From: a virus
Taxonomy: Duplodnaviria > Heunggongvirae > Uroviricota > Caudoviricetes
Virus record (IMG/VR): IMGVR_UViG_3300027798_000013
DNA length: 64,000 bases
Direction: 5' to 3' (one strand)
Both the position numbers and the translations under genes were made by a program. Below, in pieces: positions 4,657 through 21,783 of this stretch. Every line of letters starts with the position of its first letter. Position 1 is the stretch's first letter. The notes below the pieces were generated by a model, which saw only the letters and a list, made by a program, of their open reading frames with translations, searched no databases and had not been told where the DNA came from.

Positions 4657-5706
4657 TTGCCTATGCAGAAAATAACTGATACTATGTCATTATGCGAGCA
4701 TTGTTATAGACACGTGCCTGCTGTTAAGTTTGAAAAAGATGGGGCAATTTGGCTAGGCAAGACTTGCCCTAAACACGGATACTTGGAACACTTGGTAGAG
4801 CCAGATGCAGACTTTTATCTAGATTACAATTATCCAAAACACCCATTAACGTCTTATTTCATCGAAGTCACCAATCGTTGTAATTTAACGTGTCCACACT
4901 GTTATCAGTTACCAGACAACAAAAGTGTAGATTTACCAATTGATTATATTGTACAACAAGTGTCCAGCTGGCCAGACGATGGCTATTGTGTATCGTTAGC
5001 TGGAGCTGAACCTACTGTACGAAAAGACTTGGATCAGTTAATTCGAGCAATCAAAGCTATTCCCGGCAAGCCAAGAAGTATTATTGTGTTGACAAATGGT
5101 GTTAATTTGTCTAAAATAGAGTATGCAGAAAAGTTTAAAGACATTGAAGATTTGCATTGGACTATAGGATTGAATCATCCGGATTATCAAGGGCATACTG
5201 TTCGTGCTAAACAGATTCAGGGAATAGAAAATTGTGTCAAGCTAGGATTTAGCATTAAGAATATCAGTTACACGCTAGAAGATTTAGAGCAACTAGAATA
5301 CTGCTTGGACGAAATACACAAATTTTATCCAGATACTTGCAAGCAATTCAGGATCCGAGTTGGCGTTGATATTGGGCGTAATCCAGAAGGCCCGCCTGTA
5401 TACCTCAGTCAGTTGGTCGATGCTACAAAAGATATAGCATTGAAACGCAACTGGACATACAGGGAAAATCAGGACACTGGGATTCGAGCACATTTTCCGA
5501 TATATATTAATAACATATATCTTAAATTAATACAGTGGCCCGATGCTACTACTATTGATATGGATGAGATGCAAACAGAAACCTGGGCTGATTTATTGCC
5601 AGGCAAACCAATTAGTCCTTTAATACACCAAGTTATGTTACGGGATGCAAGTGTCAACAACGGTATGATGTTATACGATGTTGTACCTGAAAGATATAGG
5701 AGATAA
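4657..5706 (+). CDS. radical SAM enzyme with an N-terminal CxxC...CxxH ribbon-like segment
   Basis: CNLTCPHCYQ (CxxxCxxC) about 80 aa in. Upstream are CEHCYRH...CPKHGY, downstream GAEPT and TNG-like motifs. Confidence 0.75.
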   Translation: MPMQKITDTMSLCEHCYRHVPAVKFEKDGAIWLGKTCPKHGYLEHLVEPDADFYLDYNYPKHPLTSYFIEVTNRCNLTCPHCYQLPDNKSVDLPIDYIVQQVSSWPDDGYCVSLAGAEPTVRKDLDQLIRAIKAIPGKPRSIIVLTNGVNLSKIEYAEKFKDIEDLHWTIGLNHPDYQGHTVRAKQIQGIENCVKLGFSIKNISYTLEDLEQLEYCLDEIHKFYPDTCKQFRIRVGVDIGRNPEGPPVYLSQLVDATKDIALKRNWTYRENQDTGIRAHFPIYINNIYLKLIQWPDATTIDMDEMQTETWADLLPGKPISPLIHQVMLRDASVNNGMMLYDVVPERYRR

Positions 5707-5707
5707 A

Positions 5708-6775
5708 ATGAAAATTAGCAAAATACCAGGACTGGGAAGATTTGGAATCTTTATCGATGATGTAGATTTTACCACCATTACCGACGAGGAGTGGATGGAG
5801 ATTGGAAAACTACATTTACAAAATTTAGTCACGATCATACGTGACTGTAAATTAACTTGGGACAAGCAAACTGATTTTTGCACACAGTTTGGCGATACTA
5901 GATACGGTGTTAGATACCTAATACTTAAGAAATATCCAGGCAAAACATTTACACAGATAGCAAGGTTAGCCATGCAAGATGATCCCAGTGTGGATGAGAT
6001 TGATCGTATTAGATTAAAAAGCATATTCAATATGCAAGAACTTACAGCTGACGGAAAACACGTTATGCGAGTCACTGGCAAGAAGGACGAAAACGGTAAC
6101 GCTTTAGGCATGTTTGCAGAAGGTGAGTTATTGTGGCACAGCAACGAAAGCGGCACATTAACATTTACACCGGGCGTAGCATTGTTAGGAGCTGAGAATA
6201 TGATTGGTTCCAGCACTGGATTTTTGACTACACCGGACTACTATGAAAACGTGAGTAATGCGTTTCGTAGTGAGTTGGATGAGATGATCCTAGTACATAG
6301 ATTTACTCCTGGACGTATTAATCCAGGATTGCGTGTGGAGCAAGACGAAGTAATGCATGCCAACATGTGTCCCGAAGATGATATGGAAATACCTATGGTT
6401 ATTACTAGTCCGGGCGGTATTAAAGGTCTACACTATAGTACCAACACAATACACAATATCAAAGGACTTAGTAAAGAAGCCAGCGATGAGATCTTTAAAG
6501 TTATCAATTCAGAATTGTTTGTGGAAAAATACACATATGATCACTGGTACAAAAGCAATAACGATTTTTGTCTTTTTGACAACAGTATTACACTGCACCG
6601 CAGACTAGGCGACATTAAAGACAGACTGTGCTATCGTGTACAACATGATTATAGTAATTTGCAGGACGGATTTTGGCAACCATATTTGCACGAACCAACT
6701 GCTAAAAGATACGAAGAAGAAATCAAATATTATGTTGATCTAGCAAACATTAAGGACTTTAAGTTACCAGCATGA
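5708..6775 (+). CDS. TauD/TfdA-like putative Fe(II)/2OG dioxygenase
   Basis: N-terminal LGRFGIFIDDVDFTTITDEEWMEIGKLHLQNLVTIIRDC...FGD pattern typical of TauD-family N-termini, then WHSNESG. AGGAG sits 7 nt before the ATG at 5708. The track's upstream start overlaps the previous gene. Confidence 0.5.
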   Translation: MKISKIPGLGRFGIFIDDVDFTTITDEEWMEIGKLHLQNLVTIIRDCKLTWDKQTDFCTQFGDTRYGVRYLILKKYPGKTFTQIARLAMQDDPSVDEIDRIRLKSIFNMQELTADGKHVMRVTGKKDENGNALGMFAEGELLWHSNESGTLTFTPGVALLGAENMIGSSTGFLTTPDYYENVSNAFRSELDEMILVHRFTPGRINPGLRVEQDEVMHANMCPEDDMEIPMVITSPGGIKGLHYSTNTIHNIKGLSKEASDEIFKVINSELFVEKYTYDHWYKSNNDFCLFDNSITLHRRLGDIKDRLCYRVQHDYSNLQDGFWQPYLHEPTAKRYEEEIKYYVDLANIKDFKLPA

Positions 6776-20033: not shown

Positions 20034-20824
20034 TATTTCAGCCCTAATTCTTTACGTATTTTAGTAGCACTAATATCAGTTACTGCGTCATCGAATGTTT
20101 CTTCGCCTGAAGTATAGCCCACGCCTCGGCCCCAGCCAATGTGTACAATGTTAGGAACAACTTGTATTTCGTACTGGCCTTGATATAGCGGATCAAGATC
20201 ACGTTTGATAAAACTTTTAACTTTTTCCACTTCAAATGGATTGCTACCTTGCCAACCTTGTACATCACGTACTTGGATTATAACTTGTCCAGTTTTGGAT
20301 AACAGGCGCTCAAACAATGCACGATGTCCATCATGCCACGGTTGCCAACGACCCAGCATTTGTACAGTTTCTTTCTTCCAATCAAACACAGGTCGACGTC
20401 TGTTGTCTACAATGTGCGCGGCAACAAATTCACCCCACTTTTCTGCACGTTGTTCTGTAACACGGAAGTCGTATACTTCTGGTTCAATAAACATGGCGTT
20501 AGTGTCAGCGTATCGACCTTCACGGATAGTATCCATCCAGACGGTCCAGTCTGCTTTGAAGTTATTACGCATTTCAACCAATGGTGCAACAAAGTCACAA
20601 ATAACAAAATCAGTAGTATAACTATCTGCAAGTTCTCGCATACGTAAACTTTGACGAATACGTCCTTCGTGGCTAAAATCCCAATCGTTATATTTTTTTC
20701 GAACATCGTCAGCATTAAGCCACATGACTGTTTTCTTTTCAGTCTGAAGCTGTTCTAATATATGTTGTGCTATGGTTGTTTTGCCGGATCCAGGAAGACC
20801 CATAATTAATATACGTTTTGTCAT
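20033..20824 (-). CDS. two-domain protein: P-loop kinase (APS-kinase-like) fused to a HxGH nucleotidyltransferase
   Basis: MGLPGSGKTT Walker A followed by NADDVRKKY (APS-kinase-like order). C-terminal half has WQPWHDGH (HxGH) and ISATKIRKEL (ISxTxIR), typical of cytidylyl-/adenylyl-transferases. Confidence 0.55.
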   Translation of the reverse strand: MTKRILIMGLPGSGKTTIAQHILEQLQTEKKTVMWLNADDVRKKYNDWDFSHEGRIRQSLRMRELADSYTTDFVICDFVAPLVEMRNNFKADWTVWMDTIREGRYADTNAMFIEPEVYDFRVTEQRAEKWGEFVAAHIVDNRRRPVFDWKKETVQMLGRWQPWHDGHRALFERLLSKTGQVIIQVRDVQGWQGSNPFEVEKVKSFIKRDLDPLYQGQYEIQVVPNIVHIGWGRGVGYTSGEETFDDAVTDISATKIRKELGLK

Positions 20825-21783
20825 TTTAGTTCCTTTGGTATTTTGCTATCTGCACTACTCACACAAGTAGGAGTAATGCACAGTTTGGGTTCTTTGAATA
20901 AATCAAACCCTGTAAGAATATTTCCTATATTGTTTTCTTTACAACTGTAAGCACGTTTGACTTCTGTGCTTCTTATTATAACACTTTGATAGCCTGCATT
21001 GCAAGTCCAGCCCTCAAATTTGTTAAATCCCAGTGCGTTAAACCGCTCTGCTTGATCAATATAATAATTTTTCTCACCATCTGTTAATCGTATTTGAAAC
21101 TGTTCCTGTTGTTCAAAATCATTTTGCATTATGCTCATCATCTCAGGAGTGTATCCTTCTACAATAGCAGTGGCAGTATCATTACTTTGAGGTTTGAGTG
21201 TCACATTGATTCCACGAGCACGTAGTCGCTCACAGCGTTCCAATGTTTCAAAAAACTTTTCCGGAACCATGACTTGATTAACAGTAACATGCACAAGTTC
21301 ATACTGTAACTGTAAACACTTGTCTCCAAACTCTTGCTCCTTGGCAAACTCCGCATGAAAACTGGCTGTGATACTCCTGCGCTGTAATAACGCAGTATTG
21401 GCACACCACGTGTTCCACCATTTGGATCCCGGGCTCAGATTGGTTGTCATATGGATACTTTGGTAAGGGCTTTTGGTTTCGTCCAAGTGTTTTATCAATT
21501 CTGGAAATTGCTTGTACGCTGTGGGTTCTCCTCCACTAAAGCTCCAATGAAATTCAGTAAATCCATTAGCTCGAGCTTGACGTTTGATTTCATCAATAGT
21601 GTTTTTATACACATCCAATGTTTGGTAATCCAATTTGTCACTTCGAGCGTAGGGCCAACAATATGAGCAGTTGTAGTTACAAAATCTACCCAATATCCAA
21701 CTTATGTTAAATAATGGACGATCCAGCATTGTTTGTTGCCCAAAAGCAACAATATTTTGAAATGGAATGGTTGTAAATGACAT
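20821..21783 (-). CDS. radical SAM enzyme, short SPASM/twitch-like type
   Basis: CNYNCSYCWP. C-terminal CNAGYQS...CKEN...CITPTC. Confidence 0.8.
   Translation of the reverse strand: MSFTTIPFQNIVAFGQQTMLDRPLFNISWILGRFCNYNCSYCWPYARSDKLDYQTLDVYKNTIDEIKRQARANGFTEFHWSFSGGEPTAYKQFPELIKHLDETKSPYQSIHMTTNLSPGSKWWNTWCANTALLQRRSITASFHAEFAKEQEFGDKCLQLQYELVHVTVNQVMVPEKFFETLERCERLRARGINVTLKPQSNDTATAIVEGYTPEMMSIMQNDFEQQEQFQIRLTDGEKNYYIDQAERFNALGFNKFEGWTCNAGYQSVIIRSTEVKRAYSCKENNIGNILTGFDLFKEPKLCITPTCVSSADSKIPKELK

Follow-up and report, generated by a model that had tools for sequence, protein, structure and literature searches.

Phage-encoded tailoring and hypermodification clusters, like hyperplastic genome islands, are already known in kind. 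The thymidine-hypermodification clusters of M6, ViI, PaMx11, SP10 and PhiW-14 are compact, combinatorial and widespread in metaviromes, and they mix a kinase, a pyridoxal phosphate (PLP) enzyme, a radical S-adenosylmethionine (rSAM) enzyme and other tailoring enzymes (Lee et al., PMC5889632, PMC8989533). Here we describe a likewise compact, combinatorial and phage-encoded gene block at about 431-23413 of a 64,000-nucleotide stretch of IMG/VR record IMGVR_UViG_3300027798_000013 (Caudoviricetes), hereafter the window. Whereas the thymidine clusters have one rSAM gene, there are 7-11 here, together with oxygenases, a sulfotransferase and a membrane desaturase, all of which the thymidine clusters are without.

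The 7-deazaguanine pathway of DNA modification (FolE-QueD-QueE-QueC plus DpdA) offers a second comparison. It shares with the window a PTPS/QueD gene and rSAM proteins of about 300 amino acids (aa) and, in relatives only, a QueC-like PP-loop ATPase beside rSAM genes (35 loci), but it lacks a counterpart for most of the island. Among the scanned window open reading frames (ORFs), DpdA/TGT, FolE and QueC were not found, 5-HMUDK and aGPT-Pplase (an amino-acid:DNA transferase) were not detected, and the only P-loop kinase matches APS_kinase. The original prediction for this locus, made by a model from the sequence alone, held that the block fits neither canonical gene set; the defining genes were indeed not found and QueE models score low.

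We tentatively favour the view that the block is a modular tailoring pathway encoded by the phage, in which a nucleotide-activated, sugar- or nucleoside-like unit would be built and then placed on a macromolecule. Because the block recurs, reshuffled, in at least 80 related phage contigs, the island is real and probably represents a new viral tailoring pathway. Part of it looks pathway-like because its sub-modules are conserved and translationally coupled. To that extent the predicted multistep pathway gains support; the original prediction named no substrate, and we too offer only candidates. Extended to a widespread clade of large freshwater phages, and held just as tentatively as a single joint claim, the proposal is that arrays of one rSAM family (N_Twi_rSAM), numbering 5-11 per genome and joined by PLP, cupin, kinase and sulfation enzymes, may make an unprecedented, heavily tailored modification. 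This would be a C-modified, hydroxylated and, in phages with the sulfation genes, sulfated unit derived from a sugar or nucleoside, carried on the giant fibre or on DNA.

Conservation and reshuffling in related phages

The window comes from a divergent, uncultured large phage. Megablast searches of 50,697 phage records with the island and with positions 30-52 kb gave no match, nor did a tblastn search of the same records with the rSAM encoded at 4657 (genes are named here by their first coordinate). The IMG/VR relatives speak for a phage origin, as do a DNA ligase (ATP-dependent), a ClpP protease and the tail-fibre-like giant ORF; the window also encodes a UvdE-like endonuclease. Identical copies of window proteins lie on dozens of metagenomic contigs, including contigs from freshwater lake samples and one of 208 kb, and the window's own proteins bear generic names in the source, or none.

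Scanning IMG/VR with the 16744 protein gave 126 matches, from which 80 loci were kept (66-97% identity, contigs of up to 353 kb). Clustering of all ORFs identified a core formed by 16744 (81 loci), 18957 (75), 22811 (68), 14029 (53), 20821 (52) and 11946 (51), followed by the PLP enzyme 18119 (46), the cupin 11234 (44), 15746 (38), the cupins 8360 and 8895 (38), 7494 (35), a PP-loop ATPase (35) and the kinase-like genes (25 each). The kinase-nucleotidyltransferase fusion (seven loci) and the TauD, desaturase and 4657 genes (nine) are rare accessories. Many island genes occur in less than 15% of loci, and both content and order vary strongly among close relatives. Amid this shuffling some adjacencies are held, namely PLP-(PP-loop)-11946-14029, 20821-22811-18957 and 16744-15746. 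The sets 11946 with 14029 and 20821 with 22811 and 18957, and 18119 beside them, are adjacent and often overlapping across more than 40 loci. Full-length related loci have a median of five rSAM genes in 21 kb.

These patterns describe a conserved but hyperplastic part of the genome of a large-phage clade, not a recent insertion. The limits given in the original prediction, which described an accessory island at 4657-21783, do not hold, as core genes lie at 22811-23413 and at 431-4651 and the island continues past the window start. On contigs with the same genes, it runs left through 431 to two more weak Asp_Arg_Hydrox cupins and then to a fibre gene (L134:9296-13024, L numbers denoting related loci). 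The left end there is a 367-aa Mtd_N (tropism-determinant-like) fibre protein.

Within the window the block is nearly gap-free, with intergenic spaces of only 40 and 181 bp, the larger of which is the location of an RNA element, and it is arranged as alternating divergent operons. Its GC content is 0.36-0.40, against mostly 0.41-0.44 in the rest of the window. Since longest-ORF starts differ from public gene calls (at 4657, 7494, 14858 and 431-1375), some apparent gene overlaps are artefacts.

Related islands carry further genes. They include nine additional rSAM clusters, a B12-binding type among them, as well as SPASM proteins, two flavin halogenases, two clusters of DegT/DnrJ aminotransferases, and proteins of the glycosyltransferase family 8 (GT8), short-chain dehydrogenase/reductase (SDR) and GDSL types. 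Other accessory clusters are ThyX (one), a Pfam QueC match (one), AhpC and a cell-wall hydrolase. Genes of the flavin-dependent Trp-halogenase family, with GGGTAGW and WxWxIP motifs, lie about 9 kb or less from the island core in two phages (L009:518-2101 and L066:2762-4267).

Two gene types that are absent from the window recur beside core genes in relatives. In 35 related loci the PLP and N_Twi genes flank the gene of a 245-aa PP-loop ATPase with an SGGADS motif and a C-terminal C..CxxCxxC (for example, L008:15275-16003 and L017:14491-15228). The protein resembles QueC or the tRNA thiolases; because its profile gives only marginal PDB matches, to tRNA thiolases, we do not call it QueC. A domain about 220 aa long, marked by the pattern FLSYxEPN...VDGDN (a DxD motif), adjoins 20821 orthologs in at least 12 loci, often as a tandem duplicate (L046:1373-2938, L038:1240-3155 and L017:2823-4133; proteins P0529, P0547 and P0613). 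Elsewhere among viruses it forms the N-terminal part of a fusion with a 22811-like domain. By its motif it may be GT-A-like; in phages and plasmids the protein carries no annotation beyond 'hypothetical', and its surroundings in Rhodobacter gave no clue.

Radical-SAM families and their partner enzymes

Seven ORFs at 4657-21783 exceed the gathering score of the Pfam Radical_SAM family (PF04055; 31.1-57.2 bits against a cut-off of 29.5), and each has one N-proximal CxxxCxxC motif. They start at 4657, 11946, 14029, 15746, 16744, 18957 and 20821. The original prediction counted eight in this range; Pfam, motif and fold bear out the rSAM assignment, and the number falls to seven, with no further ORF there carrying the motif or a Pfam match. 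Across the window CxxxCxxC occurs in 11 of 72 ORFs, against 0.15 expected from residue shuffles (maximum 2). At least four types are represented: N_Twi_rSAM (six), small paralogs of about 300 aa (three: 14029, 15746 and 20821), 18957 and 4657. No window rSAM reaches the equivalog cut-off for QueE, NrdG, MoaA or viperin in the NCBIfam scan, and QueE equivalog models score 20-30 bits against cut-offs of 206-260. Profile hidden Markov models and a structure model thus place these proteins in several distinct subfamilies of true rSAM fold. Duplication of a single housekeeping rSAM such as QueE or NrdG is rejected, there being at least four distinct types and none at an equivalog cut-off.

N_Twi_rSAM corresponds to NCBIfam model NF033640, 'twitch domain-containing radical SAM protein' (cut-off 170 bits), an uncharacterised, orphan family. 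The island has two members, 11946 (11946-13208, + strand; 336.8 bits), whose ortholog is usually coupled directly to that of 14029 in relatives, and 16744 (16744-18129, - strand; 382.1 bits), the most conserved gene of the island. Four tandem paralogs form a second array, which the original prediction had missed, at 39899-41308, 41295-42644, 42631-43950 and 43868-45136 (all +). Three of these score 312.4 (39899), 236.1 (42631) and 281.1 bits (43868), and 41295 was assigned by 33-39% identity to its neighbours plus a Pfam rSAM match. All six proteins have four invariant N-terminal cysteines ahead of the CxxxCxxC core. In the structure model, a TIM-barrel-like core can be aligned with BlsE, MoaA and anSME; it sits in the SPASM/twitch clade beside EpeE, anSME, SkfB, ChlB and SuiB. 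Its best structural neighbour is BlsE, the substrate of which is a nucleoside-linked glucuronate. No solved structure close to the family was found, and single-sequence and profile searches of PDB sequences with 16744 were uninformative.

Homologs of this family are numerous in databases (more than 3,400 and more than 8,000 matches for two paralogs). Among cultured phages, distant copies were found only in Ralstonia phage RsoM2USA and Vibrio phages K566 and K567, all unannotated. Bacterial relatives occur in Bacteriovorax, Bdellovibrionia, Flavobacteriales, Haliscomenobacter, Legionellales and Streptomyces, some in arrays, and these arrays may lie on phage contigs binned into genomes. A chromosomal operon of Bacteriovorax encodes an M16 peptidase, an rSAM/SPASM protein, an N_Twi rSAM and, translationally coupled downstream of the last, a protein with a glycosyltransferase family 1 (GT1) domain.

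The second array is syntenic in a 373-kb phage contig, there with three rSAM genes, flanked on one side by DNA ligase and MazG and on the other by fibre-like genes, PTPS, UvdE and a giant ORF. In the window, too, MazG-like and DNA ligase genes adjoin the array. In another phage lineage UDP-glucose dehydrogenase and an NAD-epimerase/dehydratase take the place of an rSAM beside an N_Twi array, and a carbamoyltransferase adjoins yet another. Three lineages have rSAM arrays near giant fibre-like ORFs.

Near the second array in the window is a PTPS/QueD-family gene (49304-49819, +; Pfam PTPS 8.9e-16), found at the same position in L125. No other gene of a pterin or 7-deazapurine pathway could be recognised in the window, and this one is possibly related to the array. 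Farther right, a tail-fibre-like giant frame (52216-63999, +) encodes at least 3,928 aa and runs off the window end. Its N-terminal region matches tail-fibre proteins of cyanophages and Methylophilales phages, no Pfam domain was found in it, and its composition is 15% Thr, 10.6% Ser and 10.4% Gly (26% Ser plus Thr), with Ala also abundant. This protein is a candidate acceptor of the modification.

The other island rSAMs belong to different types. The small rSAM 14029 (14029-14925, +; Radical_SAM 3e-11; 53 loci) is the partner of 11946, and viperin, STM4011 and MoaA models match it only below threshold. Its paralogs, recognised by BLAST, are 15746 (15746-16747, -; Pfam 9.2e-12) and 20821 (20821-21783, -; Pfam 8.9e-14), the latter adjoining 22811 and 18957 orthologs in relatives. 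The 358-aa rSAM 18957 (18957-20033, -; Pfam 4.8e-8) is of its own type, and no other family is duplicated so often in relatives, where 75 loci hold 103 copies. The protein encoded at 4657-5706 (+) has an N-terminal zinc ribbon of the Tes/GDGT-MAS ('HMPTM') type (Zn_ribbon_HMPTM 3.2e-14, Radical_SAM 3e-15), with Tes and TrsS as top partial matches in NCBIfam; its gene probably starts at the ATG at 4663.

Among the partners, 18119 (18119-18967, -) encodes a compact 282-aa PLP-dependent enzyme of fold type I. Its AlphaFold2 model (pLDDT 86.7) matches CobD decarboxylase, a C-S lyase and aminotransferases in a Foldseek search of the PDB with probability 1.0 (307 matches at E<=0.001), which suggests an aminotransferase, decarboxylase or C-S lyase. 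The invariant residues S-L-S-K185 and D157 would, by their positions, supply the Schiff-base lysine (K185) and the aspartate facing the pyridine nitrogen (D157). Single-sequence and profile searches of PDB sequences with this protein were uninformative.

Gene 20033 (20033-20824, -) encodes a P-loop kinase resembling adenosine 5'-phosphosulfate (APS) kinase, fused to an HxGH nucleotidyltransferase-like domain. The N-terminal domain matches APS_kinase (3e-12; 47.3 bits against 21.1) over profile positions 4-94 of 152 only, and the C-terminal domain matches CTP_transf_like at 0.0056 (17.3 bits), below the cut-off of 21. The motifs ADDVR...DFSxxGRIR and GRWQPWHDGH can be read in the fusion. Its C-terminal domain could equally be NMNAT-like or a sugar-phosphate nucleotidyltransferase as an ATP sulfurylase. 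The sulfotransferase at 9424-10017 (+) belongs to the Sulfotransfer_2 family (PF03567 1.8e-10; 41.8 bits against 22), the members of which are mostly carbohydrate sulfotransferases. It carries motifs of the type that binds 3'-phosphoadenosine 5'-phosphosulfate (PAPS), PKTAGTS (5'-PSB-like) and RNPWDR (3'-PB-like), and it is rare (2 of 80 loci). Two small paralogous proteins, 3950 (3950-4651, -) and 10560 (10560-11237, -), which the original prediction left unclassified, have a fold like that of protein kinases; a profile of the family finds Ser/Thr kinases and Bud32 among PDB entries (E about 1.6e-4).

The proteins encoded at 13205-14032 and 14858-15751 (both +; 42% identical) resemble SGNH hydrolases at the level of motifs. 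Blocks I, III and V (G-C-S-x-T, GxGN and DxxHP) are invariant in both proteins and their orthologs. The original prediction, which saw them as partners of the rSAMs, is borne out for these blocks but not by profiles, as no Pfam, NCBIfam or PDB profile matched the family. The true start of 14858 lies later, since public gene calls give 281 aa.

Oxygenases are plentiful. Four cupins within 4657-21783 are mutually homologous by BLAST and hhalign: 8360 (8360-8914, +; PF05118 2.3e-7; invariant H103, D105 and H154), its paralog 8895 (8895-9422, +; 35% identity, E 1.8e-23), the more distant paralog 10004 (10004-10597, -; invariant HxD...H aligned) and 11234 (11234-11905, -; invariant H82, D84 and H126). 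The profile of the first three aligns with that of 11234 at an hhalign probability of 91%, triad included. The last is a 2-oxoglutarate (2OG) beta-hydroxylase family closest to Cpz10 of caprazamycin biosynthesis (7v4f, E 1.8e-20), with proline hydroxylases at 2e-6. A further 2OG/Fe(II) cupin, of the Asp/Asn beta-hydroxylase (LpxO-type) family (1349-2002, +; PF05118 E 2.7e-18; 18 loci), lies outside that range. Of the five cupin paralogs predicted there, four are thus found within the range and the fifth beyond it. The conserved 267-aa protein 7494 (public start 7557; 7557-8360, +; 35 loci) has no link to cupin profiles and no PDB match; its invariant H-R-D...H residues make it a possible, putative oxygenase.

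Also present are a TauD/TfdA-family 2OG/Fe(II) dioxygenase (5678-6775, +; Pfam TauD 1.5e-14), nearest among solved structures to TauD, RdpA and AtsK-type enzymes, and a membrane di-iron enzyme of the fatty-acid desaturase/hydroxylase family (6772-7560, +; FA_desaturase 6.6e-11; His boxes HRICSH, HSLHH and QNNHH). For these two, as for the sulfotransferase, Pfam matches confirm the original prediction, and the PLP-fold enzyme and the kinase-nucleotidyltransferase fusion that it named are likewise recovered by the structure model and by the APS_kinase match with the HxGH motif.

Gene 22811 (22811-23413, +; 200 aa), which lies beyond the range of the original prediction, encodes the third most conserved family of the module, and in relatives it usually sits between 20821 and 18957 orthologs. 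Its conserved GGWVG and SIDIDP motifs suggest a Rossmann or SAM-methyltransferase-like protein. No Pfam, NCBIfam, PHROG or PDB match was obtained, and its relatives (1,044 clusters) include none with a functional name.

Between 20821 and 22811 is a conserved tRNA-like RNA with a variable centre (21816-21938, +). It has a 7-bp acceptor stem, a T-arm (GGTTCGAATCC) and an encoded ACCA. About 25 related loci keep it, at lengths of 96-125 nt and with a partly expanded centre, and compensatory changes occur in the acceptor stem, T-arm and extra arm (examples are L023:3102-3197, L005:4175-4270 and L025:2252-2352). Neither ARAGORN nor Rfam at gathering score called a tRNA in the window, and there is a weak Rfam match to the 3' part of transfer-messenger RNA (tmRNA). 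In relatives ARAGORN calls a 96-nt tRNA-Pro at the same position in L023 and L005, and a four-base anticodon in one. The element is a real, conserved structured RNA that lies inside the island. It was predicted to mark the island's end; the RNA itself stands, but it is no boundary, because core gene 22811 lies beyond it. No integrase was found. We reject a recently acquired island bounded by a tRNA, since at least 80 loci conserve the module and its core genes flank the RNA on either side.

Several other genes in and around the block have conserved but nameless products. These are a 298-aa protein (431-1327, -; length from the public-call start; no Pfam match), the exact product of which occurs beside further cupin genes on contigs in 39 collection blocks; a 473-aa protein (1999-3420, -) weakly conserved in related islands (12 loci), with no Pfam, NCBIfam or PHROG match; and a 182-aa protein (3414-3962, -; 16 loci) that travels with the kinase-like gene 3950 and adjoins its ortholog in many loci. 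Ten such island proteins scanned against NCBIfam and PHROG gave no matches. Next to the RNA, 21965-22267 (+) encodes a protein of 100 aa, possibly a secreted mini-metalloprotease, whose N-terminus resembles a signal peptide and which carries an HEVLH (HExxH) motif; it has no Pfam match. The stretch separating the two rSAM regions has genes for a Bax-inhibitor-1-family membrane protein (32418-33113), a Redoxin/AhpC-type peroxiredoxin (34377-34904), ClpP (34907-35527) and a MazG/PRA-PH pyrophosphatase (38699-39061), all on the + strand; the redox and protease genes may support Fe-S enzymes.

A possible tailoring pathway and its rivals

How might these enzymes work together? The scaffold is most likely an unusual sugar or aminosugar, possibly a nucleoside-amino-acid conjugate. 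The kinase-like proteins and the kinase-nucleotidyltransferase fusion would phosphorylate and nucleotidylate it, or make PAPS, and the PLP enzyme would add or remove an amino or carboxyl group. A team of rSAMs, consisting of the two N-terminal-twitch enzymes paired with small rSAMs, plus 18957, could then act on unactivated C-H bonds (epimerisation, dehydration or deoxygenation, decarboxylation, C-C or C-methyl formation). Hydroxylation by the cupins, the TauD oxygenase and the di-iron enzyme, methylation by the 22811 protein and sulfation by the sulfotransferase may follow, with O-acyl groups handled by the SGNH-like proteins. The unit would be attached during infection, most plausibly to the Thr/Ser-rich giant fibre of the phage itself, alternatively to its DNA or to the host envelope. 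Directly observed are the classes of enzyme present and how they are conserved and linked; the order of steps, the substrate and the acceptor are our inference.

Several lines of evidence suggest sugar or nucleotide chemistry. These include the Sulfotransfer_2 enzyme; the DegT/DnrJ, GT8, SDR and GDSL proteins of related islands; the UDP-glucose dehydrogenase, epimerase and carbamoyltransferase beside N_Twi arrays; the GT1 coupling in Bacteriovorax; the DxD domain near 20821; and BlsE and Cpz10 as nearest solved enzymes. The fibre is suggested as acceptor by the arrays near giant fibre-like ORFs, the Mtd_N protein on the left flank and the 26% Ser plus Thr of the giant ORF.

Other observations weigh against this proposal. 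No recognisable glycosyltransferase was found in the window's island, and the gene for the DxD domain is also absent from the window. Amino-acid or protein substrates would be an equally good match for the cupins (PF05118, Cpz10-like and proline-hydroxylase-like), the kinase-like proteins and the Trp halogenases found in relatives. Because they occur in only a few loci, sulfation, TauD and the desaturase are decorations, not core. In the Bacteriovorax operon an M16 peptidase stands with a SPASM rSAM, as is typical of peptide maturation. Where gene order is mixed, as in this genome, closeness to fibre genes could arise by chance, and the window examined is 64 kb of a genome of more than 200 kb.

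Alternatively, the target could be DNA or the nucleotide pool, with a non-canonical base, made post-replicatively or via a 7-deazapurine-like precursor, serving against restriction or CRISPR. Thymidine-hypermodification pathways mix kinases, PLP decarboxylases, rSAM isomerases, oxidoreductases and acetyltransferases, and are combinatorial among metagenomic contigs (PMC8989533). The plasticity of the module is as expected of arms-race genes. MazG-like and DNA ligase genes stand beside the second array, and single accessory clusters in relatives match Pfam QueC and ThyX. A nucleotide or DNA target stays alive because of the second array, the PTPS/QueD gene at 49304 and the QueC-like gene (SGGxDS and a C-terminal Cys cluster, between PLP and N_Twi genes) of 35 relatives, the last two of which the original prediction had also missed. 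Counter to this, aGPT-Pplase, a 5-HMUDK-type kinase, DpdA/TGT, FolE and a thymidylate-synthase-like hydroxymethylase were not found among the scanned window ORFs, QueE scores are far under their cut-offs, and the PP-loop gene is missing from this phage's island. Sulfotransferases, membrane desaturases and SGNH proteins are also not known in DNA-modification pathways. We consider this explanation unlikely.

A second alternative, which we find doubtful, is that the SPASM/twitch rSAMs, hydroxylases, kinases and halogenases modify a polypeptide, for instance the giant fibre, directly, in the manner of anSME or of the enzymes for ribosomally synthesised and post-translationally modified peptides (RiPPs). 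Arguing for this case are the place of the N_Twi core in the SPASM/twitch clade, the Asp/Asn beta-hydroxylase and proline-hydroxylase affinities of the cupins, the protein-kinase fold of the kinases, the M16 peptidase and SPASM rSAM ahead of the N_Twi gene in Bacteriovorax, and the arrays near giant fibre ORFs in three lineages. However, small-molecule chemistry is the better match for the PLP enzyme, the kinase-nucleotidyltransferase fusion, the carbohydrate-type sulfotransferase and the DegT and UDP-sugar enzymes. A RiPP recognition element (RRE), a leader peptidase and a transporter were not found in family scans of the island ORFs. A RiPP cluster with its own precursor gene is unlikely because the block lacks the intergenic space for one, its gaps measuring 40 and 181 bp with the RNA in the larger, though a substrate could be embedded or distant.

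Finally, there may be no single pathway at all, but a hyperplastic zone of independent auxiliary enzymes, like the hypervariable islands of T4-like cyanophages, that act on host metabolism, lipids or lipid A. The operon of Tes-like rSAM, TauD and desaturase genes (4657-5678-6772), for example, could act on membrane lipids. Consistent with such a mosaic are the strong variation of content and order, with many genes in less than 15% of loci, a GC content below that of most of the remaining window, and heterogeneous accessories (halogenases, AhpC, ThyX, cell-wall hydrolase). Furthermore, rSAM-rich marine phages have been read as cases of Fe-S-related auxiliary metabolism (PMC5332604). Against it stands a stable core of about ten families across loci with 66-97% identical 16744 proteins, with fixed adjacencies and overlapping stop and start codons. 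The 22811-type domain is fused elsewhere to the DxD domain that neighbours the module, and six paralogs of one rSAM family in one genome suggest serial chemistry on one class of substrate. As an account of the whole block, we judge the mosaic improbable.

Enzymes of the rSAM class are costly and oxygen-sensitive. Because the phage keeps 11 of them, and the clade a core of five to six despite reshuffling, their chemistry should bring an important gain. If the proposed tailoring pathway is real, both the class of viral macromolecule hypermodification and the set of rSAM chemistries would be new. Identifying the product would assign chemistry to a large orphan enzyme family and add biocatalysts, would show why large phages expand rSAM arrays, and might uncover a type of virion or DNA modification not seen before, of relevance to arms races between lake phages and their hosts. 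The question is testable in the laboratory because distant arrays occur in cultured phages (K566, K567 and RsoM2USA).

Comparison with other described systems

The caprazamycin/liposidomycin liponucleoside pathway (Cpz10, Cpz15/LipL, Cpz27; PMC9814697) resembles the block in enzyme classes only. Common to both are a TauD-family dioxygenase, a PLP enzyme, a kinase, a nucleotidyltransferase, a methyltransferase-like protein and a sulfotransferase. In contrast to the block, this pathway belongs to actinomycete secondary metabolism and is without rSAMs, and its transaldolase, ribosyltransferase and acyl-handling genes were not identified here.

Virion-fibre glycosylation, as in the fibril sugars of Mimivirus, and phage O-antigen modification are closer to our proposal in their setting, with virally encoded sugar-tailoring enzymes (aminotransferase, acyl-handling, methylation) beside fibre genes. 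These systems have recognisable nucleotide-sugar enzymes and glycosyltransferases and no rSAMs, whereas rSAMs abound in this window and no glycosyltransferase was identified.

The rSAM-rich genomes of T4-like marine viruses (Nishimura et al. 2017, PMC5332604) share with the window a large uncultured phage as source, about a dozen rSAMs, ClpP and redox proteins. That study gave only a gene count and considered Fe-S supply, without describing a conserved module, partner enzymes or an assignment to families. Literature on rSAM-rich freshwater or jumbo phages otherwise yielded only a passing mention in Lake Baikal phages. What is new here, and without counterpart in the searchable literature, is a clade-wide module of lake phages built on arrays of orphan rSAM enzymes.

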